Below are positions 5,327 through 54,820 of a stretch of 64,000 bases of DNA, piece by piece. The DNA is from Sphaerodactylus townsendi (taxonomy: Eukaryota): the NCBI RefSeq assembly GCF_021028975.2, contig NC_059428.1:109864001-109928000 (forward strand). The letters are read 5' to 3'. The number at the start of each line of letters is the position of its first letter. Position 1 is the stretch's first letter. The notes under the pieces are model-generated. The model was not told the DNA's origin. It searched no databases and was given only the letters and a program-made list of their open reading frames with translations. Made by a program: the position numbers and the translations under genes.

Positions 5327-5485
5327 CTTTCCCTCCCTGGCTCATGGAACCAGTGTCTCGTCCACATTGTCCTTTGTTATTCACTCCAAATGTCCACACT
5401 TCTCCATTCTTCATTAGCACACAAGTGTGAGCTTTGCCCATGGCTACCTGAGTTGCAAAATGGCCTTTCAAATCAGTTACTAAAC
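5327..5485 (-). CDS. MYCBP2: MYCBP2 exon 14 (SLVTDLKGHFATQVAMGKAHTCVLMKNGEVWTFGVNNKGQCGRD...), RCC1 repeat
   Basis: 159 nt in ORF 5097..5561; ACAG| acceptor, AAG|GTCAGT donor. Confidence 0.97.
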
Positions 5486-5839
5486 CTGTGAGACAATACA
5501 CAAAGGAATGGTAAGCATCTGTCCAGAAATCTGGCATATTGTGATAATATATATTAAACATTTATATCCATCTAGAATTATACATCAAGCAATACAAGAA
5601 TCTGCAGAATCATTTTATCATTAAAATGATACAAAGATAAAAGGAAAGATAACAGAGATAAAAATAAGAGATAAACAAGGTCTGAGAATGCAAATACACA
5701 TGAAAGGCAGAACGCCTGGGAAATAAGTATGCTTTCACCTCGTACTTGAAGTTCAACAAGCTGGGGACCAGGAAAAATGGTGCAGGGGAGGGGTGTCACA
5801 GAACAGAGCACCCTAGAACCAGCAGTCACTAATCTTTAT

Positions 5840-13103: not shown

Positions 13104-13209
13104 GTATTGTTGAAGGCTTTCACGGCTGGATTCAACTGGTTGTGGTGGGTTTTCCAGTCTTTGTGGCCAGACCACAGCCACACAGCCCAGAAAACCCACC
13201 ACAACCAAC
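13104..13209. mobile_element. Penelope-like element remnant with inverted structure
   Basis: GTATTGTTGAAGGCTTTCACGG start; internal inverted repeat; 14-bp TSD TAACTGTATTTAAT (13090-13103, 13210-13223). Confidence 0.75.
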
Positions 13210-34014: not shown

Positions 34015-34247
34015 GAGCCTGGGGTGTTGTATGAGCTTCATAGATGTATAACCATATAACAGTAGCAGAAGTTTCCCAAGACGTTTTGCCAGATTCTGTA
34101 TTGGCATCTTCAGTGAGATCCTCTGAAGATGCCAGCCACAGATGCAGGCAAAACGTCATGAGAAAATGCAACTAGAACACGGCCACGCAGCCTGGAAACC
34201 ACACAACACCCCAATGATTTCAGCCGTGAAAGCCTTCAACAATACAT
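34015..34247. mobile_element. Penelope-like element remnant, head-to-head inverted pair
   Basis: GGCATCTTCAG immediately followed by CTGAAGATGCC; ends GAAAGCCTTCAACAATACAT. Confidence 0.75.
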
Positions 34248-37200: not shown

Positions 37201-38511
37201 TGGGCCTGGTGGAGCAGCAACAGCAAAACCACCCTCCTGTTTAGACTGGCAGCAGCCTCCCCAATCCCCTTCCCCCCATCAACAAAACTTGCATCGAGGG
37301 GCCTCCGCAGGCAGAGAGACCAATCATGGCCACCAGAGGCTGTGGAAGAAGGCCGCCAGGGCAGGCAACCCTGGAAAGGTTTATTTTTATTTGCAGCGGG
37401 GTGGCAGCAGCGGGTGGCAAGCGAGAGGGTCAGCAGGCAAGCAAATGGGCCGGCAGGGGAGATGGCAGGTAAAGCAGAAGCGCATTGTGGGAGAAAATGC
37501 TTGCTCACCCCCCCTTTCCTCCAGCTTGTTGCATTTCCTCTGCAATAGGCTTTACTGCTAGTAGATACATAAAATGCAAGGTTTATTGGTGTCAGCTCAC
37601 TTTTAAAAAGTGGTTCAGGCACATCAGTGGAGTGGATAAGAAGCAGTGAAACAAGAGTATGCAAGGTATATTGGCAACAACTCAAGTTTTCTAGAGCTCA
37701 TTTTATTTTGTCGTACAAAGGGCTTTAGTGCTAGTTTGAAATGTTTTAATAGCAGCTGTATCTCCTCCCTCTTTTCTAAACAATGCTTATTTGATTACAT
37801 TTACTGTCTGCCTTCCATGCTGAAATTCACAGGTGGAATTACTAAGCCAGGTGTGTTCATGTTATTGGTAAAGACCAGGGTAGACTCCTAATCTGGGGAG
37901 GCCTAGATTTGATTACCCACTCCTCCACATGAGCTTAACGAGATTCCTTGCATCTGGTGAACCAGATTTTGTTTGTTCCCCTATCTCCCACATATCCAGC
38001 TGGAATTTGATTCTTTTGCAGCCCCACCTGAGATGCCTGAGGTGGGGAGAGGAACTGAAAGGAGTTTGTAAGTTACCTTGAGTCTCCTTACAGGAGACAA
38101 AGGTGGGGTATAAATCCAAACTCCTCTTCCTCTTCTCTATATAGAAATGGCCAATGCAACCAACAATATGAGACATCTAATAAACAGTATACTAGTATGA
38201 AGAAGATCTTAAACAAGCACAGAATATTAAACCTAATAGAGAATGCAGATACAATGGAGAAAGGTCCACCGTACCACTGAGAAAATAATCAGCTTATACA
38301 GAAAAAATCAGTCAGAGGAAAAAACAGATAACCAGCGAAAGCCAGAAACAAGGTAAAACACATTCAGGAAGGACCGATGTAGGCTCAATAACAACTACAA
38401 AACTATTTTAAACCAAGTAACTATCACTAAACCCCTGAGAAGAACTATAATAATATACATACCGAAGGACCCCAGAACACTACGTCAGGAAAGAATGTCG
38501 GCAAGGGAAGG

Positions 38512-38604
38512 CCAAGATGTCACCCTAGCCGTCCATAAGAAAGACTCTTCACGGTGAGTATCCGATGGACCTTTCTCATGGAGGCTGGTGACATCTTGTC
38601 TGGG
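38512..38604 (-). repeat. DIRS internal complementary region (ICR); second, inverted copy at 47445-47537
   Basis: Contains TTTCTCATGGAGGCTGGTGACATCTTGTCTGGG, the exact complement of the terminal 33 nt (48541-48573), abutting ...ATGGACC, which is complementary to the left-end remnant GGTCCA. Confidence 0.88.
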
Positions 38605-38657
38605 TCCTCCTACAGCAGTGTCCCAAAAATAGGGAGGGCCTCTACATTGAAACTCCT

Positions 38658-39241
38658 CTAATAACTTATGCTCCAAAATCGTCTCTTAAGGCCAAAGGAG
38701 GCTTGGACTTGCAGTTGATGTAACGCCAACTGATAAAGTGCCGCATACAAATCCGAAAAAGGGGTAGACCCCAGGTGGCTGCCACTGCAAATATCCTCTA
38801 AGGGGAACAGCAGCTTATAGAGCGCGGCGTTTGGTGCCGCGCTCCTGGTGGAATGGGCCGTGATTCCCTGCGGAATGGGTATGTCCAATGCCTTATGGGC
38901 CTCTACTATACAGGCTCTAATGGTGGAACTAATTGCTGCCTTGAACATCGGATTTCCTACATTTGGAGGAGTAACATTAATGAACGACGACTCAGACTTC
39001 CGAATCTCCTCAGTTCGAATGTTGAAGGCTTTCAATGCCCGTCGCACATCGAGATGATGCCACAGTCGTTCATTAGGATGCTCCAGCTTGGGACAGAAAT
39101 TGGGAAGCACGATGACTTGTTTAAGATGGAAATCCGAGGCCACCTTTGGACGAAACACAGGATCAAGCCGTAGAGTGACACTATCCTTTGAGAAGAAGCA
39201 AAGATTCTGATTAACCGAAAGCGCCTGGAGCTCAGAAACTC
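38658..39241 (-). pseudogene. DIRS tyrosine recombinase, C-terminal part (VSELQAL...HSTR...)
   Basis: Continues the RVSEL motif once the CR1 is removed; FRPKV, LDVRRAL and AHSTR motifs. Confidence 0.88.
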
Positions 39242-42161
39242 ATAAGAACATAAGAACAAGCCAGCTGGATCAGACCAAAGTCCATCTAGTCCAGCTCTCT
39301 GCTACTCGCAGTGGCCCACCAGGTGCCTTTGGGAGCTCACATGTAGGATGTGAACGCAATGGCCTTCATGCAAGTGCTGTTGCTCCCGCCATCACCTGGT
39401 TGCTGTTGAAGGCATTGTTGCGTAACCTCAGATCAAGAAGGATCAGAGATTGCAGCCATAGATCGACTTCTCCTCCATAAATCTGTCCAAGCCCCCCCTT
39501 TTGCAAAGCTATCCTCCCAGGTTAGTGGCCATTGTCACCACTCCCTCCACCGCGGTGGCAGCATATTCCAAACACCAATCACACTTTGCGTGAAGAAGTG
39601 TTTCCTTTTATTAGTCCTAATTCTTCCCCCCAGCATTTTCAATGAATGTCCCCTGGTTCTAGTATTGTGAGAAAGAGAGAAAAATGTCTCTCTGTCAACA
39701 TTTTCTACCCCATGCATAATTTTGTAGACTTCTTAATCATGCTCCATCCCCCCCTCAGCCGCCTCCTCTCCAAACTAAAGAGTCCCAAACGCTGCAGCCT
39801 CTCCTCATAGGGAAGGTGCTCCAGTCCCTCAATCATCCTTGTTGCCCTTCTCTGCACTTTTTCTATCTCCTCAATATCCTTTTTTTGAGATGTGCGGCGA
39901 CCAGAACTGGACATAGTACTCCGGTCGCGGTCGCATTCTCACTGCCTTTATATATAAGGCATGACAAATTAACTTTTTGCCCAGTTTTATTCTCAATTCC
40001 TTTTCTAATGATCCCAAAGTATAGAGATGATTTGCCTTTTCACATAGCTGCCGTGCATTGAGTTGAGCATTCTGGGCATGGAACTATCAACTAAGACGCT
40101 TCTAAATCCCTTTCACTGGTCTGTGACTGATAGCACTTTGGACTTCCCTGTAGCTGTTGTATGTGTGAAATTTGGATTTTTTGCTCCCTAAGTGTGCATC
40201 ACTTAACTATTTTGCCGTCAGACTATTGAACTGTGCATTTGCCATTTCTGGAGCCCACTCCACCTAATTTATCAAAGGTCCAAAGCTTGGAGCTCTTTCG
40301 CAATCCTTTGTGGTTCCCTACCACCCTACCATAATTTTGGTATCATCCTGCAAGAGCTTGGCACACCACATACCCACCCCTACTTCCAGGTCATTTATGA
40401 ATAGGTTAAAGAGCACATGGTCCCAAAAGCGGATCCCTCTGGGGGGGACACCTACTCCCGACATCTCTCCATTGTGAGAACTTCCCATTTACCAACCACT
40501 CCTTTTGTTTTCCCCTGTTTCCTCAACCAGTAGTTTTAATCCATAGGAGGGACTTCCCCTCTTATTCCTTCTTCATTAAGCTGAGTTTTTCTCAACAGTC
40601 TCTGGTGAGGAACTTTTGTCAAAAGCTCTTTGAAATCCAATGAACTAGACAATGTCCACCGGTTCACCCTCTGTCCACATGCCTGTTTCACACCCTTCTC
40701 AAAAGGAACTCTAGTAAGTTTGTAAGACAGGATTCTGCCTTCTCGCAAAAGCCATGGCTGACTCTTTCCTCAGCAGGTCTCTGCTTTTCTACATGTTTTA
40801 TAATTCTTATCTTTAATGATAGATTCTACTAATTTTACCAGGAACAGATGTCAAACTGACTGGCCTGTAATTTCCCGGGTCCCCCCTAGATCCTTTCTTT
40901 AAAGATTGGTGTGACATTGGCCATCTCTCCAGTCTCTCAGGGATGGAGCCTGATTTCAGGGATAAGTTGCATATTAAAGTGAGAAGATCAGCAATTTCAT
41001 GCTTCTTGAGCTCTTTTAAGAACCTCTTGGGTGAATGCAATCTGGGCACAGGGGATTTGGTAACATTTAGTTTATCAATGGCTGCCAGAACTTCTCTTTC
41101 CTTTGTCTACCACTATCTCTTCGCTTAGTTCCCTCCGGATTCAGCCTCCTAAGAAGCTTGGTTCAGGGGTGCAGGAATGTTCCTCACCTCCTCTTGGTGA
41201 AGACAACGGATGCAAAGAAATTCATTCAGCTTCTCTTGCAATCTCCCTGCCATCTTTTAGCACACCTTTTGTTCCTTTGTCATCTAATCCGGGTTTCCCA
41301 TACCAGCTTTCACTTGCTGGCTTCCTGCTTTTGATGTACTTGAAGAATCCTGCTTTTGTTGCTGGTCTCTCGATGTATTTCGTAGACCATGCGTTCCTCA
41401 TAATCCTTTTTTGCACTCCCTTACAGCTAACTTGCTTGCTACTTTGCCACCATTTGTGTTTCCCCTCTGGTATTCTTCATCAGCCATAATGAGCTGGACT
41501 TCTTCCATTTTCTAAAAGACATTTTCTTTTTTCTGATAATTTCCTCAAGCCTCCTCTCTTGTTAACCATGGTGGCTTTCTTTACTGGACTGTGTGCTGCC
41601 AGCACTCCTTTCTAACCTGTGGAACACATTCCAGCTGAGCTTTTATTACTGTGTTTTAAAATAACCTCCAAGCATCCCTGGACAGTCTTTGACTCTCTTT
41701 GGATTTTCCCTTTCAGCTTCCTGCAGCACTATCAACCTTCATCTCTTTACGAAGAGAATTTCCCTTTCTGAAGGCGGTAGATGTAACTACATTAGTGAGT
41801 TGCCACTTGTTCGCATGCTGAGAATCACTCGAATCGACGGACAGCATTGTGGTCAGCTTGTTCCCATCGGGCTCAACGCAACACTGACTTCCTGCACACC
41901 CAGGTCCTGGGTCCCACATAGAATTAGATCTAGGATCACCTCTCCCTGGTTGGTTCCACAACCATCTGCTCTAAGCCACAGTCATTTAGCATATCCAGGA
42001 ATGCTCTCTCTCCTTACTATGACCTGAACATGCATTTTTCCAGTTTATATGGGGATAGTTAAAATCACCCATTACCACTACATTGTTGTTTTTGTTGGCC
42101 TCTCTAATTTCTTTTTCCATCTCAGAATCCTCTTGTGCACTTTGGTCTGGGGGACGATAAT
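39242..42161 (-). mobile_element. 5'-truncated CR1 LINE inserted in the DIRS YR gene
   Basis: (TTCTTATG)n tail at 39242; ORF2 motifs [27 protein letters not shown] and YYRPPDQ (endonuclease); 5-bp direct repeat AACTC at 39237-39241 and 42162-42166. Confidence 0.93.
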
Positions 42162-42600
42162 AACTCTATGTGCCGAAGTGATGGCCACTAAAAACAACAC
42201 CTTCATCCGCAGCCATTTAAGGTGTATAGACTGCATTGGCTTGAAAGGCGATCTAGTTAAGGAAGAAAGAACAGCATGAAGGCGCCAGGACAGGAACCAG
42301 TGCACAATGGGGGGTTGAGACTGTTGGAGCCCCTTCAGGAATCTTGCTACATCAGGATGCCTGGTGATGGGAAACCCTTGAAACTCCGGCCAAACTGTCG
42401 CCAGAGCAGCCCACTGCCTACGAAGGGTGGAAGCTCGTAGTCCTGACTCGAAGCCGTCCTGGAGGAAGTCCATCACTACCAACAAAGAAGGAGGGTCTAA
42501 GGAAATCCGTTTCCTGCAACTCCAATGCACAAACGCTTTCCAAGAGCTATTATAAATACTGATGGTAGACCTGCGCCTAGCAGCTAGGATAGTAGAAGCC
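42162..42600 (-). pseudogene. DIRS tyrosine recombinase, N-terminal part (up to TSAHRV)
   Basis: ORF 42078..42530: DFLQDG...STLRRQWAAL...HPDVARFLKG...KVLFLVAITSAHRV; cut by the CR1 insertion. Confidence 0.88.
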
Positions 42601-42608
42601 CTTATCAG

Positions 42609-43256
42609 TCAGCCTGCGCCTTTCAATCTCCAAGCCGGATCCGGATGCCAGACTGGTCCCTGTGACAGCAAGTTGAGAATTACTGGAAGAGGAAAGGACT
42701 GCGTTATGCTCATCTCCAGAATGGATGATAGCCACAGTCTTCTGGGCCAATAGGGGGCCACTAAGATTACCTCTGCTCCGGTTTGGGCGATCTTCCTGAG
42801 GAGCCTGGGAATGACCTGGGTTGGCGGAAAGGCATAGAGAAGTCCCCTCAGCCGTGGAGCGGATAGGGCGTCGGTTGCCACTGCCCCACTGTGAAAGAAC
42901 CTTGTGATATAGAGAGGAAGCTGATGATTTTCTGGAGCAGCGAACAGGTCTATGAGAGGTTGAACCAGCCTGCGAACGATCTGTTGGAAAACCTCCTGCT
43001 TGAGCATCCACTCTGAGTTCTGAACCCTGCTCCTGCTGAGCCAATCCGCCGAAGTATTGAGAGATCCCTTGACATGCTCTGCAATCAGGGAGAGAAGGTG
43101 CCTTTTGGCCCACACCAGGATCCGGGAAGCCTCTTGGTGAAGAGCCGACGACCTGGATCCCCCCTGGTGATTCAGATAACATTTCGCCGATACATTGTCT
43201 GTGTGAATGACCACGTGCGACTGTATGATCTGCGGCAGAAAACGCTTCAGAGCCAA
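42609..43256 (-). pseudogene. DIRS RNase H C-terminal part plus DNA N6-adenine-methyltransferase-like domain
   Basis: HTDN...YLNHQGG...HVKGSLNTSADWLSR (RNase H), then IDLFA...LYAFPP...ILVAPYWPRRLW (DIRS methyltransferase-like domain). Confidence 0.88.
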
Positions 43257-44415
43257 CAGAATCGTCCTTGTTTCCAGTATGTTGATGGGTAACTTGGATT
43301 CGGCTTGAGTCTAAAGTCCCTGGGCAAAGCGGTTCTGAAGAATTGCTCCCCAACCTGAAAGGCGGGCATCAGTAAAGATGTGATATACCTGATAAGGGTC
43401 TGGAAGAATACCTTTCCCTGAGACAGATTCTGACGATGCGACCACCACAGCAGACTCATCCTGACGGAAGCGGTGACTTCCAAGAGACTATGTTGTTTCT
43501 TGGCGACCTGCAAGGCATAAGGCCGAAGAAGGAACTGTAATGCTCTGGTGCGAGCCCTGCCCCACTGCACCATGTCCGACACTGATAGCAAGGTGCCCAG
43601 CAGACTGGAGAGCTGAAGCATCAGAAGAGCCTTGGCCTGAATGGTCTTTTGGACTGCTTCCTGGATCTTCCGGATCTTTTCCTCTGGGACAAACAAAGCA
43701 CATCGATTAGTATCTATCACTGCACCTAGGTGCTCCAGATCTCGTCGGGGTCAAAACGCTCTTTTCCAGATTGACAACAAAGCCATGTTGTTCCAGAGTC
43801 TGTATGACCATCCGCGTGTCTTCCGAAGCTCGCTGGAGAGACCGGGCCCGGATCAGAATGTCGTCTAAGAAGGGGTAGACGTGCACCCTGTTCCTTCAAC
43901 AGAGCTATGGGAGCCAGTAACACTTTCGAAAAAACTCGCGGAGCTGTGGCCAGCCCGAATGGGAGAGCTGCATACTGGTAGTCTTCCTCTCTGATCGCGA
44001 ACCTCAAGAACTTGCGATGGACCACATTGAAGGGAACATGGAGATAAGCTTCCAATAAGTCCAGGGAAGTTAGAAAATCGTACCTCTGAATTGCAGCCAC
44101 TATGGAACGCAGGGTCTCCATTCTGAATCTGAAAATGCGCAAGTGACGATTGAGATGTTTTAAATTGAGAATGACACGCCTCTCTCCGTTTTTCTTGGGT
44201 ACCGAGAAAAGATGGGAATACACTCCGGAGTGATGTTGCTGTGTGGGCACTGACTCTATGGCTCGAATGTCCAGAAGATGGTGAATGGAATTGTGCATCA
44301 GCATCCGCATTGCCACATGGTCTGACAGAGGGGTCGGAATGATCACTGGCTTTGGCCAGGAGGCAAATTCGAGACAGTAACCAGAAGAAACAATTTCTAG
44401 AGTCCATTTGTCCAC
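43247..44415 (-). pseudogene. DIRS reverse transcriptase
   Basis: YSHLFSVPKKNG, RVILNLKHLN, LDLLEAYLHV, LPFGLATAPRVF; after a frameshift VYPFLDDILI (FLDD at 43860-43871). Confidence 0.92.
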
Positions 44416-44594
44416 ATGAGGGGCTTGCCAGTGTGCAGCGAAGGCTGCAAGTCATCCCCCTATCGGAAGAGTCCCAGTGTCACGCTGATTTTCCCTGCTG
44501 GGGACGGAAAGACCGATTTGTAGAGTTGCCAGTGGGTCGAAACTGTTGACGTCCGTGAGAGGATACAGATGGTCGCCAGTTGGAGCGTCTAGTT

Positions 44595-45028
44595 CAGGGG
44601 TAGGGAACCTTTAACACTCAAAGAGCCATTTGGACCCATTTTCCATGGAAAAAGAAAACACTTGGAGCCGCAAATAATTTTTGACATTTAAAATAAAGAT
44701 AACACTGTATATATTGGGGTTTTTTTACCTTTTACTCCGCTCATTCTGAGAAGCACATGGATGCATCCGCCCTGCTGCCTGCAGGGAGGGTAAGGATGGG
44801 GCCAGCGGCTCGGCCTTGCCGGCCGCCGGGAAAGTGCCCACCCCACTCCAACGGGGCAGGTGAGAGGGGAAGCCCGTGGCGTGGCCCAGCCGGCTGCAGG
44901 CAGTTGGTGCGCCCGCCCTGCTGCCTGCAGGATGGGCAAGGATGGGGCCAGCGGCTCGGCTTGTGGAGCCGCAGCGCAAGGGCAGAAGAGCCGCATGTGG
45001 CTCTCGAGCAGCAGGTTCCCTACCCCTG
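44595..45028. mobile_element. Non-autonomous hAT (Charlie-type) DNA transposon inserted in the DIRS
   Basis: Perfect 16-bp TIRs CAGGGGTAGGGAACCT / AGGTTCCCTACCCCTG; 8-bp TSD GTCTAGTT at 44587-44594 and 45029-45036. Confidence 0.95.
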
Positions 45029-45036
45029 GTCTAGTT

Positions 45037-46722
45037 TCTTCAGATGCCTTGGAAAGGAGCGAAAGGGACGAAAAGGTCGAGCAGCGGAGCGAAAAGGATG
45101 AGGCCTGTCACTGCGAACAGATTTGGGAAGAATCTTATGCTTGTCCTTGGATTCCATCAGGACACTGTCTAGGTCTTTTCCAAAAAGCTTGCCACCATGA
45201 AAGTCGAATCCAGCTACCACCGTCTTTGAATGCAAGTCAGCCTGCCAAGGCTTGAGCCAAAGAAGATGCCTGGCCACCGCAGCCGCTGTCAAGGATCTGG
45301 AAGAAACTAGAAGCCCATCAGAAGCCGCATCAGCCAGGAAGGAGACTGCAGAGATAACACACTCCACCCCCTCACAAAGCCCCTGACTTTCTGGGGGCAG
45401 GAGGGCCAGAATATGTCTAAGCCACGAGAGGGTTGCCAGCAAGACAAGGGCAGCTGGAGCTAAAATCTTGGAGGCAGTAGCCGAAGCCTTGTGGGCCTTT
45501 CGTAAAGCTGAATCAAATTTCTTGTCAACAGAGTCCTTAAGATAAGCCTCCCCATCCTTTGTGATTAGGCCGCCTGAGTGGAGGGAAGAAACAGGAGCAT
45601 CCACTAAGGGAACCTTGAGCATATCCTGGATATGCTGTGGGACTGGGTAGAGCTTCTTAAAAATAGTAGGCAAGGTCTTGGGAGCTGCCAGATTCTGCCA
45701 TTCCCTTCTCATGTTACGTTCATACAATGCAGGGATTGGGGAAAAATTAGTTGAAGTGCCCTCATGATGGAAAACCTCCTTGATGCCCCTGGGGCAGCCC
45801 TTGATGGGCCTGGACTCAGCAGAGGAAGTGGATCTAAAGCATCTTCCAGTCCTGCAGCTCCAAGTTCGAGATAGTTTTAGAAATCAGAAAGGGCAGGTCA
45901 TCCAAATTAAATAGCCTGTGTTTTTGTTCCTCTGGGGGGCCCCCTGTTCATCATTATCTGAAAAATGCTCAGAGGCCTGATCTACCTCACCTTCACTTAG
46001 CTCTCTCTCCCAAGAAGAGGACCTACAACTAACCAGCACACCACCAGGGGGAGATGGTGATCTATAATGCCTTCCCTGGATGGGAGATCTGGACCTGGAC
46101 CTATGACGCGAGGAGGGGAGGGCTCTGCCACAATAACTGCGGACCTCCGTGCGAATAGAATGACGCATAGCGTCCAAAAGAGCAGCAGCAGAGAAGGTTC
46201 GCCATCCCCCTAAATAATCCTGGGTCCCCAGCTCCCGCAAACTCCCCGATCTTGCCTGATCTGTGGGTCTGGGCCGTCCTCCAAAGCAGCAGGGCCTGCA
46301 GGAACCGGAGGCGCGACCTCTCCCTGCTGTGCTGAGGAATCATTGCGCTGGGAGACCTGCCCCGACTGGGGACTTCTGGGCGAATCAGCCCGACTATGGT
46401 GCTCGGTCCGCAGAAGCGCAGCTGCTTCATGCGCCCAAGAGGAGCCCTGCCCAGCCCCTCTCGCCAAGTCGTCAAAGCGCGCACTCAACCAAGCGGTTGA
46501 AGCCGGCGCTCGGGAATCCGCCGAAACTGCTCTTCTGCTGCGGGGAGCAGCAAGGTCGTCGAATGACCGCTCCAGCTGGCGTCCCCATGAGGTAAGCTTG
46601 TCAGCCCCGCTGCCAGAGCGCCCAGAGGCTGTTTTAGAAGCCTTCTTTGTGGCCTCTCGGGTGTTTTCAGCAGCTGATTTGATGAAGGAATCTCCCCTGG
46701 GGGAAAAAGAGCCTGATGCCAT
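45037..46722 (-). pseudogene. DIRS ORF1 (gag-like), frameshifted
   Basis: ATG at 46722 (MASGSFS...); fragments in ORFs 46210..46989, 45884..46240 and 45020..45727 with DIRS gag-like motifs (KVPLVDAPV, RHLLWLKPW, GGKLFG). Confidence 0.75.
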
Positions 46723-46974
46723 CTTGGGAGCTAGGCCCCTTTTGGCGGGAAAATAATAGCTGAGAGAAAGAATAGAAGAAAAAACAGCAAAAGAGATGGA
46801 ACTGCTCGACAGGGCAACCCTAAACAGCACAGAACACTGTAGAATAGAGAAAAGGTAGGAACAAGCAAAAAAAGACAAACTAGAGGTGAAAAAACGCACA
46901 GTTAACAAGAGCCTAGCGAATTGGTATGAACTCTCTGCGAGACAGGAAACATACTGGGGAAGGCGGCAATCAGT

Positions 46975-47404
46975 CAATTTCTGTCCCAAGCAGGAGCATC
47001 CTACTGAACGACTGTGGCATCATCTCGATGTGCGACGGGCATTGAAAGCCTTCAACATTCGAACTGAGGAGATTTGGAAGTCTGAGTCGTTGTTCATTAA
47101 TGTTATTCCTCCAAATTTAGGAAATCTGATATCCAAGGCAGCAATTAGTTCCACCATTAGAGCCTGTATAGTAGAGGCCCATAAGGCATTGGACATACCC
47201 ATTCCGCAGGGAATCACGGCCCATTCCACCAGGAGCGCGGCACCAAACGCCGCGCTCTATAAGCATGTTCCCTTAGAGGATATTTGCAGGGCAGCCACCT
47301 GGTCTACCCCTTTTTCGTTTGTACGGCACTATCAGTTGCGTACATCAACTGCAGTCCAAGCCTCCTTTGGCCAGAGGATTTTGGAGCATGTTGTCGGGGA
47401 TTAA
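46975..47404 (+). pseudogene. Inverted duplicate of the DIRS YR C-terminus
   Basis: ORF 46886..47404: LDVRRAL, AHSTR, DICRAATWS...FVRHY (catalytic H-x-x-R, W, Y); reverse complement of ~38650-39102. Confidence 0.92.
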
Positions 47405-47628
47405 TGTCGGCCCTCCCTATCTTTGGGACACTGCTGTAGGAGGACCCAGACAAGATGTCACCAGCCTCCATGAGAAAGGTCCATCGGATACTCACCGTGA
47501 AGAGTCTTTCTCATGGACGGCTAGGGTGACATCTTGGCCCTCCCTTGCCGACATTCTTTCCTGACGTAGTGTTCCGGGGTCCTTCGGTATGTATATTGTT
47601 ATAGTTCTTCTCAGGGGTTTAGTGATAG

Positions 47629-48273
47629 TGTTATGGAAAATATATTGATAAGTTGTGAGGTTTTCAGATATATATGCAGACTATATGCTATATGCTTGTG
47701 TGGTGTTAAGAAATATATATATAGCTATATGCTTCAGATATGAGTTCAAACTTTGCCCTAGCTATTTCAAGGTTGTTTATTAAACCGGATGCTTCTAGCT
47801 TGCATGGAAATAAGAAGTAGTGTGCCTGCGTGCAAGGAAAAGGGAACTGACACCATCATGTGAGGATCACTCACGGGTACATGGGTACAAAGTTGCCGTG
47901 AAATGGAAATAACCGTTGTGCTAGCTGGAAATAACCATTGCTCAATAACCTGTTGCTTAAAGTGGGTGAAACTAACAGAATAACAAGTTATGGGGATTTT
48001 TGGGGTGGGTTAGTAAAATTTGTAATACTGCCTTTTTAGGAAGATTGTGAGCCTTGGGTCAGCCCTAAGAGCCGTGTGGTGTCTTGGGATTGGTTCAAGA
48101 GACAGAGAGGGGATGCTTTAAATTGAGCTGCAGTGCGATGCAGACTTCAGAGAGCCACACCCTGATTCAGTTGGTTCTCTCCACCTCTATAGACGTGAAT
48201 AAACTGCTTACTGCTGACTGCTGCGTTTGTGAGTATTGATTTGATTGGGGATATCTGAAAATACTCCATAACA
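47629..48273 (+). mobile_element. Solo LTR (645 bp) inserted in the inverted DIRS duplicate
   Basis: TGTTATGGA...TCCATAACA termini; AATAAA near 48198; 4-bp TSD ATAG/ATTG; absent from the homologous arm at ~38420. Confidence 0.9.
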
Positions 48274-48454
48274 ATTGTTACTTGGTTTAAAATAGTTTTG
48301 TAGTTGTTATTGAGCCTACATCGGTCCTTCCTGAATGTGTTTTACCTTGTTTCTGGCTTTCGCTGGTTATCTGTTTTTTCCTCTGACTGATTTTTTCTGT
48401 ATAAGCTAATTATTTTCTCAGTGGTACGGTGGTATACTGTCATGCTCGGAGGTC

Positions 48455-48573
48455 AACATACTGGGGAAGGTGGCAATCAGTCAGGGCACAGGAAGTGATC
48501 GGAATTGGTTTCCTGCCTCTCGGAGAGTGGGCGGGAGCAACCCAGACAAGATGTCACCAGCCTCCATGAGAAA
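48455..48573 (-). repeat. DIRS 5' inverted terminal repeat; its inner 29 nt recur at 46948-46976
   Basis: AACATACTGGGGAAGG(T/C)GGCAATCAGTCA at both sites; ends in CCATGAGAAA, matching the ICR. Confidence 0.85.
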
Positions 48574-48724
48574 AATGGTAGTACATTAATAAAAAAACAA
48601 TGAAGGATTCAAGAGAACACTTGCAAACCGATACATACTACATATACAGCAGTATAGTTCAGTCCCATTCACTTCATAAAAGTACCTGCCAAACCCATTC
48701 CATTATAGTATAGCCCTAGTGCTC

Positions 48725-49215
48725 TACAGAAATGCCTTCCTTAACCCCTGTTTTACATACTCTGCAGAGAACAGAAGGGTAGGAGTCTTCCTAAACTTCT
48801 CAGACAGGATGTTACACAAGGTGGGGACCACAACACAGAATTGCTGATCTTGCCCATTTGCAGGGCAGCAACCACAGAATGCCCCGATCAGATGAGGGAA
48901 GGTGTCTTGGCAGAGCATACAAGAAGCAGCCTTCCAGATATGACGGCCCAAGGCCATGAAGGGCTTTAGATATGACAACCAGAACCTTGAATTGAACGTG
49001 GTAACTGATGAGCAGCCAATTATTGCAAAATGGGTGTAATATGCATGCCCCTCCCAGTTCCTGACAATAACTGTGCTGCAGCATTCTCTACCAACTGAGG
49101 AGTCAGCGCTGACTTCAAGGACAGACCCATGTAGAGTGGATTATAAAAGTCCAGTTTCCATGGAATGGATCCAGATGGCCAGGTAAGCCCAGTCAAGGTA
49201 CAGTCAAGGTACAGT
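48725..49215 (-). mobile_element. L2 LINE 3' fragment
   Basis: KLDFYNPLYMGL, QLVENAAAQLL, HITPILQ and VQFKVLV motifs. Confidence 0.8.
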
Positions 49216-52818: not shown

Positions 52819-54820
52819 CAGGGGTCTCCAATGTGTTGCCCATGGATGCTGCATACCGTTCCAAAACAACCCTCAAGACTTGTCCAGGGTGCAGCCACAC
52901 CCACCGTGCCCAGCCACTGACTGAACTCCCCCACCCTCCCACCACTTCCTCTACCAATCCCCCCTGTTCCTGCAAAAAAAAAAAAGAGTATGCACCAGGG
53001 AACAAGCTTGCGATGGCAGGGCCAGAGGTCTCTTTCCAAATCACTCTCTGCCTGGGGTAGAACTTGTAAACGCAGCCAAGGGATCATCTTGCCTTCTGGG
53101 ATCCATAGGATTTCCCTGTGATGCAGCTGCAAAGGATGTGTGTGCATGCATTTGTATGAGGGAAGCGGCAGGAGGAAATCTATGGCTCCTTCGCTTCTCT
53201 CAGTGGGGGGAGGGCATGGCAGGGGAGTTTGTCTGTGGGCTGGGCACAAGGGGGGAGAGAGGGAGGCGTGGGTGGACAAAATGTGCCCCCCATGTGACCC
53301 AGGCAAATGGCACCTGGAGTTGTCTGCCCCTCCCAGATACACTATTGGCCCATGGTGCCATGGCACCAACTAACACCATTGCTGGACTTTAGTAAGCATT
53401 TGGAAAGTGGGCAGGCCCAGGTAAAAGTTTTGCCCAGCAGGACTTTTGATTGGCTATGCAGACTTTTAAAAAATTGTTTCAGCAGCAGTTGCCACCACCA
53501 CCACCAAGGATCTTTACTGCATGCAGGGGCGTATCTGCCATGGGATCACAGGCAGTCAAATGTCCCTGGGCACCCCCATTTGGTCACATGGGGGCACAAA
53601 AATTTCAAGTTCGTTTGTGTTTTTTGGTATTTTGTAGTGTTTTTCCAGTTTTTAGGCTAGCAGCACAAAAATTTCAGGGATTTTTCAGGAGACTCTCCTG
53701 ATAATACCACCCAGGAGTGGTGAGGTTTGGTTCAAGGGGTCCAAAGTTATGGACTCCCAAAGGGGGTGCCCCAACCCACATTGTTTCCAATGGGAGCTAA
53801 TAGGAGATGGGGGCTACACCTTTGAGGGTCCATAACTTCGGACCCCCTGAAACAAACTTCACCATACCTGGGTGGTATCATCAGGAGAGTCTCCTAAAGA
53901 TACCCTGAAATTTTGGTACTGTTAGCTTAACAATTACACCCCTGACAGAAGGCACCCCCCAAATTTCCCCAGATTCTCCTTTTAATTCCAGCCCCTTCCG
54001 CATGGATTTAAAGGGAGAATCTAAGGTCCCCAGTTTAAACATTGAAAGTGATGCTGTTTCAGAGTGGGGGAGAATCCCCCCCAAACAACATCACTTTCAA
54101 TGTTGTTTTAACTAGGGACCCCAGACTCTCCCTTTAAGGTGGGCGCCACAGGTTGAGGGAGGGCACTGACCCTCCGGAGCCAGAGCCCGTGCCAGCACAC
54201 TGACTCAACCGCTTCTGGCCTGCCCAGCAGTATACCTGGGCCCCTTGCTGCCTGTCCAAGTGGTAGACCTGGGCCCCTTCCTGCCTGCTCAGTGGTAAAC
54301 CTGGGCACTCCTCCATGAGATCGGCAGATGGCTTGATTTCTCTCCCCCCCCCCCCGTATCTAGGGAAAATGGAGGGGGGGTGGAAAAAATCAGATTATGT
54401 CCAGGGCTCCATTTTCCCTAGATATGCCTCTGCTCCACCCTCTTGGAGTCCGTGCAGGGAGGCTTCTGCCCTCCCCAGGCCCTGGGGAGAGCAGGAGCTG
54501 GAAGCAGGAACGCGCAGGGGAGGGGTTACGCAATGCGTGGGGGCGGGGCTACGTGACCCACAGGGGCGCCCGGAGGATGCTTTGTCCCCAGGCGCCACTT
54601 CCCCCCATGACTGACAGAATGCTATGCACAACTAAGAAAATATTTTAAACACTACATTCATTTTTAAAAGCATCCTGTTAAACAGCGCTTCTGCCTAAAA
54701 CATTGAAGTATTACATTGAAGTATTACTAAAACATTGAAGTATTACATTGAAGTATTACTATTTATGCATGACCTTACTCCTTTATTTTTGGAGCTAATT
54801 CCATCTCCGCTGTACTAAGC
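52819..54820. mobile_element. Composite of nested non-autonomous DNA transposons
   Basis: hAT-like start CAGGGGTCTCCAA; inner element CAGGGGCGTATCT (~53524) ... AGATATGCCTCTG (~54432); internal palindromes. Boundaries approximate. Confidence 0.55.

Follow-up and report, generated by a model that had tools for sequence, protein, structure and literature searches.

The window, by which we mean the whole stretch of 64,000 nucleotides analysed, contains a DIRS1-like element that occupies 38260..48573 on the minus strand, nested insertions included, and carries TTT at 48571-48573 and 38260-38262 as the NTT trinucleotide of both ends, judged from the inserted copy alone. Its gag region (45030..46722, minus strand) is broken and holds a LAP2alpha domain within 45023-45883 (E 1.3e-16), with gag homologues aligning across 45844-45059. 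The pol region (42612..44535, minus strand) matches RVT_1 (E 4.3e-7) and is interrupted by stops at 44454 and 43313 and by at least three frame changes. The match of pol to RT_RNaseH reached only E 0.016, below the cut-off, and homologues align throughout the RT/RNase H stretch, 44535-42612. No Pfam match was obtained for a methyltransferase domain after RNase H, though this stretch does align to YR-bearing homologues. The RT homologue search gave no match, and the PDB search with the homologue alignment matched only host domains fused to mis-annotated homologues.

The YR ORF overlaps pol with its N-terminal part (42162..43356, minus strand), which has one frame change near 42595, and resumes at 39239 beyond a nested LINE (39242..42161, minus strand) that splits it and is recognizable by an Exo_endo_phos_2 endonuclease (E 4.2e-9) and GAGTT flanks. 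Across pol and YR there are at least four frame changes, some of them possibly assembly errors. Tyrosine recombinase features are present in YR in the form of HSTR and RHY motifs; the YR fragment of the window has no Pfam match, and the YR homologues P0004 (54% identical) and P0007 (49%) match Phage_integrase but narrowly miss the cut-off. Among the named YR homologues, those from snakes and lizards are the closest, at 44-54% identity. DIRS YR sequence is also found in the host-gene protein models P0008, P0010, P0015, P0018 and P0019 (EphA7, EEPD1-like, ZIP11, NOL6, ZP2-like), which are probably mis-annotated fusions. After gag lies a nested MITE (44595..45028) with 15-bp inverted ends and an 8-bp target duplication, which we take to be hAT-like.

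At the level of the genomic setting, exon-like stretches on the minus strand are located at 59396-59185, 7354-7190, about 5330-5490 (an RCC1 repeat) and 3883-3679. Since they flank the element on the same strand, they suggest that it resides in an intron of a host gene transcribed in its own orientation. With its RCC1 repeats this gene presumably resembles MYCBP2; the Atlas search gave no name for it. The right flank after TTT starts CTCCATTG and resembles the element start TTTCTCATGG (flanks at 48574-48600 and 38236-38259), a similarity that possibly reflects target-site likeness. Short self-complementary repeats at 53649-53933, 54008-54137, 34072-34165 and 13137-13207 are probably MITEs, and partial copies of some of them occur near 23.4-23.7 kb.

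Structure of the inverted duplication

The left end of the element is formed by an ITR of 119 nt (48455..48573, minus strand) whose inner end continues into reversed 3' UTR and not into 5' UTR. The sequence that it enters, arm B (46975..48454, plus strand), comprises an inverted YR C-terminus, ICR and 3' UTR. With a 645-bp solo LTR excluded, 46975-48432 is the reverse complement of arm A (38266..39102, minus strand), which holds the native YR C-terminus, ICR (about 38509-38605) and 3' UTR. Self-BLAST of the window recovers this relation as two inverted matches, 38420-39102 against 47629-46975 (92.8%, 28 gaps) and 38266-38424 against 48432-48274 (98.7%). The rest of arm B, 48433-48454, is 3' UTR that arm B has kept and arm A has lost. 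The YR C-terminal 141 codons of arm B (46976..47398, plus strand) contain no stop and retain both motifs, and its ICR (47444..47540, plus strand) shows the AAA circle junction at 47475-47477 and a hairpin z of -6.9. The inverted segment measures about 0.86 kb and a single-copy interior of 7.9 kb lies between the arms.

Both borders of arm B lie in ITR sequence. The inner 29 nt of the left ITR, with the 5' UTR still attached, are found at 46948..46976 (minus strand) as a direct repeat of 48455-48483, 28/29 identical. The abnormal junction between inner ITR and YR (46975..46976) reads AATCAGT-CA-ATTTCTG; only CA is common to ITR and YR, and the flanking base beyond CA differs at either side. Taken alone, this microhomology is weak evidence, because at least 2 nt are expected by chance at about 15% of random junctions. 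On the other side, the ITR finishes in a left-type terminus (48540..48573, minus strand). Each of the two ICR copies has a left half that is complementary to this terminus at 34/34 nt, and in arm B that half, the 34-nt stretch 47444-47477, has stayed identical to 48540-48573 at 34/34. The ICR thus accounts for the left end over 34/34 nt, its predicted right end coincides with the element's last 9 nt, and it carries the AAA junction. The preliminary description had proposed this same arrangement, namely the inverted copy, a left junction 29 nt into the ITR with CA microhomology, and an entry into the ITR at 48455 that ends in the left-type terminus, and all three elements hold. Folding back of the sequence, whether at the junction or within the ITR, was considered as a candidate and rejected (z 0.06, 0.34 and 1.58). 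A 21-nt, 86% complementary pair is formed by 46930-46950 and 48508-48528, that is, the 5' UTR start and the ITR core; in a normal element it would place the junction site in a loop of about 50 nt.

The reality of the left junction was assessed in sequencing runs. Five runs contain the stretch, four of which were compared over 46500-49000, with 32 of 1193 pieces listed. The junction is bridged in three of the four (X2, X4 and X5), all from one study with two organism labels, and one of these runs may be the source of the window. The contigs of X2 and X4 each cover 46500-47034 with 0 differences and extend 58 nt past the junction. The X5 contig, under the other organism label, covers 46500-47022 with 7 differences in 523 nt and extends 46 nt past it; the rearranged junction is thus present under two organism labels. 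X1 offers hardly any cover there. The depth of the junction contig is flank-like in X2 (93 vs 88) and X5 (29.9 vs 24.6); in X4 it is 54 vs 29.7 for the flank, other single X4 contigs having 46-49, a scatter that would be explained by GC bias.

These data bear on the idea of an assembly artefact, or of real pieces in a wrong arrangement such as a flipped interior between the arms. It draws on the insertion-type noise seen in arm A as well as in the neighbouring LINE, and on the right junction and the two arms together being spanned by none of the contigs listed. Against it stand the bridging of the left junction in three samples, one of which, X5, differs from the window too much to be its source, and the behaviour of the sequence common to both arms, which assembles at about 1.7-2.5x single depth in contigs whose ends (47034, 47134, 47022) coincide with the positions predicted by the arm differences. 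Furthermore, arm B carries an LTR insertion of its own, and a flipped interior would still leave the rearrangement real. We regard an artefact as very improbable, and the check for misassembly that had been called for at 46975 comes out in favour of a genuine junction. Among the contigs listed (32 of 1193 pieces), none bridges ITR core, terminus and flank, and two hold just 30 nt of the terminus.

Contigs from relatives of the element carry both normal ends, in the window the left ITR being present but split and the right one deleted. Their left end appears in X4 as a joint from 46962 to 48505 with 36 homologous letters between, so that 5' UTR is continuous with ITR, and their right-type ends as opposite-strand joints 47536/48546 in X1, X2 and X4; their 3' UTR runs continuously into the ITR in contigs reaching 48481. 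Joints from 47558 to 48506 and from 47032 to 47430 point to another family copy that apparently has its ICR near the ITR and hardly any 3' UTR; it may represent a subfamily that is shorter or more distant. The copy number of the family was judged from contig depth.

The relatives also bear on another candidate explanation, in which arm B would be a separate DIRS copy, truncated at its 5' end, that entered the left ITR head-on and produced the 29-nt repeat as a target duplication. Direct repeats of 29 nt do flank arm B, and the available text of PMC7192593 and PMC5633606 indicates that DIRS-1 prefers to insert into DIRS-1 in Dictyostelium. Such a copy should nevertheless have TTT on the left of arm B, where there is none, and a right-type end like the relatives, where a left-type terminus is found. 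It also lacks a tail. Because family members normally pass from 3' UTR into ITR, the second repeat does not represent a target duplication; in addition, the arms lie only 2.4% apart compared with 10-11% to the nearest relatives. A second insertion therefore appears most unlikely, and the concern that 48455-48573 might be the normal 3' end of another subfamily is dispelled by the right-type ends of the relatives. Given that contigs bridge the junction and that relatives show normal left and right ends, the locus is one dead DIRS element, running from 48573 to 38260, in which the last 0.86 kb or so recur in inverted orientation inside the left ITR; it is neither a misassembly nor a copy from a second subfamily. 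The duplicated YR copy has no coding function and there is no sign of its spread.

Divergence of the arms and later changes at the locus

In the global alignment the arms differ at 16/659 cleanly aligned nucleotides (2.4%), a count that leaves out 38638-38815 with its 28 extra bases and 5 adjoining substitutions. The differences are distributed as 9/287 in YR, 5/213 in ICR and 3' UTR and 2/159 after the LTR. Among the contigs listed, the nearest relatives are 10-11% away (33/337 and 23/210 nt different), and no parent or sibling copy of at least 88% identity was found over 46500-46835, the gag start. These distances agree with the earlier view of a local copy as opposed to independent elements. 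All nine YR substitutions in the clean 287 nt change the amino acid, as had been counted before, when 77% of random changes would be expected to do so (P about 0.09). This count is compatible with the neutral drift then invoked, but it neither dates the duplication nor explains it. The arm differences also cluster, with 6 of the 16 packed in 43 nt (47091-47133 vs 38944-38986; post hoc P about 0.02). Likewise, three of the YR substitutions (47075, 47091 and 47127) do fall at CpG sites as proposed, but comparison with homologues shows that at 47091 arm A has gained a CpG, so that this site does not reflect decay. At least two of the six clustered differences are placed by homologues as clear changes of arm A, and the cluster may have originated by short-tract conversion from another copy.

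The timing of the duplication can be approached by comparing the decay of the element with the age of the arms. Two stops in 1434 homologue-aligned codons correspond to a decay of 1.3% (0.16-4.7%), a value of 5% being disfavoured (P about 0.017). Because the segments were taken from tblastn hits, this count may underestimate the stops. The arms have accumulated about 1.2% each (16/659 pairwise, 1.4-3.9%). On these sequence estimates, a duplication at or soon after insertion would fit and is not required, the wide limits also permitting an event well after. As for rare residues, H69 is present in both arms, in a column occupied by Y in 96% of 155 homologues (a rare Y-to-H change); the arms also have in common one three-base change, probably a family-level one, and each of them has 2 rare changes of its own. 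In the clean part, shared rare residues amount to 4 with 17 homologues and to 2 with 155/167, the leave-one-out control ranging from 0 to 16. Arm-to-arm gene conversion was considered and is not claimed: in X5 the arms collapse into single contigs (46993-47280 and 48282-48481), but such contigs can drop variants; identity of the X5 arms follows from contig ends and letters at 47004 and 47075 alone.

Several changes have been superimposed on the duplication. The solo LTR (47629..48273), with TG..CA ends, 8-bp inverted ends and an ATAG/ATTG target duplication, is younger than the duplication, given that it is present in arm B only; relatives' contigs with an empty LTR site have joints that skip 649 nt. 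At the opposite end of the element, a right-terminus remnant, TGG-ACCTTT (38260..38268, minus strand), is joined to the 3' UTR. Arm A halts at GGTGG and joins ACCTTT, the final 6 nt of the ICR-predicted right terminus, and the chance of these 6 extra right-terminus nucleotides at a given place is 2.4e-4. The joining of ACCTTT to the 3' UTR at TGG therefore means that the right ITR has been deleted in the window, and with it most of the right extension, via TGG microhomology (38260-38285). An X5 contig of depth 42 is unbroken across 48282-48481, which suggests that the deletion is absent from the X5 organism and hence a later event.

The 28 gap positions between the arms are all extra bases in arm A, within 38642-38812. 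They are probably assembly insertions or long-read errors, because a depth-240 contig equals arm B over 47282-47473 with 0 differences. Neither these insertions nor the right-ITR deletion, probably later, had been noticed previously. Insertion-type noise affects both 38642-38812 in arm A and the adjacent LINE (39242-42161), much like a poorly corrected long-read patch.

Possible routes to the duplication

The reading that we put forward, at about an even chance of being correct, is that the inverted copy was made before integration, when minus-strand cDNA mis-primed on YR through CA and the normal ICR step then rebuilt the left end. The plus strand of the window corresponds to the direction of minus-strand cDNA synthesis. 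Reverse transcriptase would copy the transcript until the template ended inside the left ITR, presumably 29 nt in, at 46976. The cDNA 3' end, which should pair with the ITR copy at its own 5' end, would instead mis-prime about 860 nt further in, on the TG of the YR antisense strand, either internally or at the end of an abortive cDNA. Copying of YR, ICR, 3' UTR and ITR would then yield arm B, the product observed, and the new end would pair with the left half of the ICR and copy the left terminus, giving a left-type end without a second error. Integration would follow, with the TTT observed at both ends, and finally decay, by the solo LTR of arm B (demonstrably a later arrival), the LINE, the MITE and, probably later, the right-ITR deletion.

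The Cappello model, as described in the accessible part of PMC7192593, has the cDNA end within the left repeat, be restored from the same-strand right repeat and then pair with the ICR, and the same source shows the ICR to be essential. An obligatory transfer is thus located in the left ITR and followed by ICR copying, which is a point for the cDNA route. Since ICR copying normally supplies the left terminus in this model, a single abnormal switch suffices. The preliminary description had invoked two switches; the microhomology junction stands as one of them, whereas the switch within the ITR need not be an error, ITR-then-ICR copying being the normal DIRS route in the consulted portion of PMC7192593. 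The linear single-stranded form predominates in Dictyostelium DIRS cDNA. Regarding the transcript, the parts of the three Dictyostelium papers available to us are inconsistent: PMC3950715 describes little left repeat and nearly all of the right repeat, PMC7192593 also little left repeat, yet with most of the right repeat missing, and PMC5633606 is ambiguous on the ends. In vitro, retroviral reverse transcriptases extend duplexes of 2 nt that include C or G, according to the available sections of PMC3035444. This clamp activity is known from retroviral enzymes on terminal, tandem templates and not from DIRS RT, which counts against the cDNA route, as does the use of a 2-nt match when a 29-nt perfect partner was available. 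Furthermore, the absent siblings and the 10-11% distance to relatives would fit an older insertion, and the H69 common to both arms may be a further point against.

A more specific proposal, which we hold to be rather unlikely, takes 46976 as the transcription start, so that the junction would be a frozen mis-transfer at the obligatory cDNA step and one member of a recurrent class with a fixed left-ITR breakpoint across vertebrate DIRS. If so, recurrent copies with variable 3' donors and left-type ends would supply genomic support for the succession of steps that the Cappello model proposes.

The main competitor of the cDNA route is repair after integration, a plausible explanation that we rate somewhat short of an even chance. 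Starting from a break or a stalled fork within the left ITR, a strand end would invade the right ITR, at least 6 kb off (or an element transcript or cDNA), copy about 860 nt backwards and be rejoined to the left ITR through microhomology. Both TTT ends are left intact by such an event, the single copy without siblings and the shared H69 all fit it, and the locus bears another microhomology deletion at its right end. The geometry is moreover that of the human case BAB8920, in which, in the available text of PMC6902434, a switch between opposite-oriented repeats is combined with a microhomology switch. Nonetheless, repair requires two abnormal switches with just about 100 nt of ITR homology, and makes the agreement between element age and arm age a mild coincidence. 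The choice between cDNA and chromosome had been left uncommitted at the outset; the data now lean to the cDNA route, and only slightly.

In the literature consulted, the rebuilding of DIRS ends rests mostly on the 1985 model, in which the order of strand transfers is proposed and not observed. By the cDNA route, the element would be an uncommon relic of a replication step for which a model is the main source of knowledge. The odd end of this copy agrees with the model's prediction for a single failed transfer, and it provides a test, namely whether such junctions are concentrated at the start of the transcript. Otherwise, the structure would be an ordinary repair scar in a dead repeat, a small case of DUP-NML-INV/DUP via the transposon's own inverted ends.

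Relation to known elements and rearrangements

Judging from the available parts of PMC3266345 and PMC9210276, the element resembles vertebrate DIRS1-like elements of the AcDIRS2 and XtDIRS3 type in its gag, pol and overlapping YR, an ITR of about 120 nt, an ICR matching both ends with an AAA junction and TTT ends, and a 12-nt block common to the ITR and both ICR halves. It departs from typical members in having a left ITR split by about 0.86 kb of inverted 3' sequence, two ICRs and a right ITR that is deleted in the assembly. The inverted-duplication structure was not found for DIRS in the literature searched, which covered few subscription journals.

Among chromosomal rearrangements, the closest likeness is to DUP-NML-INV/DUP, where, in the portions consulted of PMC6902434 and PMC9851044, a distal segment is inverted between proximal direct copies with copy-neutral DNA between. 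As in PMC6902434 (available text), one junction lies in inverted repeats, here the ITR, and one at microhomology, here CA. The scale is different, with 7.9 kb here vs copy-neutral regions of 3-8 Mb in the cases presented in the accessible text of those two papers. In addition, both repeats here come from one transposon and a reverse-transcription route gives the same product. The DUP-TRP/INV-DUP logic first suggested for the locus shares the switch in inverted repeats followed by a microhomology switch; it has to be abandoned, as no inverted triplicated segment lies between the duplications and the arm is present twice, the geometry of DUP-NML-INV/DUP.

Inverted rearrangements have also been described within transposons. 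L1 twin priming is said to generate 5' inversions in new insertions, and, presuming the cDNA route, it offers the analogy of a reverse-transcription accident that leaves an inverted segment. L1 inversions are truncated and target-primed, whereas here an otherwise complete element carries a duplicated segment. In maize, the catalytic gene of a transposon is reportedly duplicated in part and in inverted orientation at Mu killer, a hairpin RNA silencer. The present element likewise has a partial inverted duplication of a catalytic gene, from which host-gene read-through could yield hairpin RNA; unlike Mu killer, its arms are 7.9 kb apart, one of them is split by an LTR, and it is known here from DNA alone. 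Minus-strand exon-like stretches lie on both sides of the duplication, and none of the runs in which the DNA search found the stretch is an RNA run. That read-through of both arms from the host gene would produce a Mu killer-like hairpin helping to silence the family is a highly speculative notion. Inverted transposon rearrangements were thus already known from L1 twin priming and Mu killer, and what appears to be new here, within the literature searched, is a DIRS element with its own tail inverted inside its left end.
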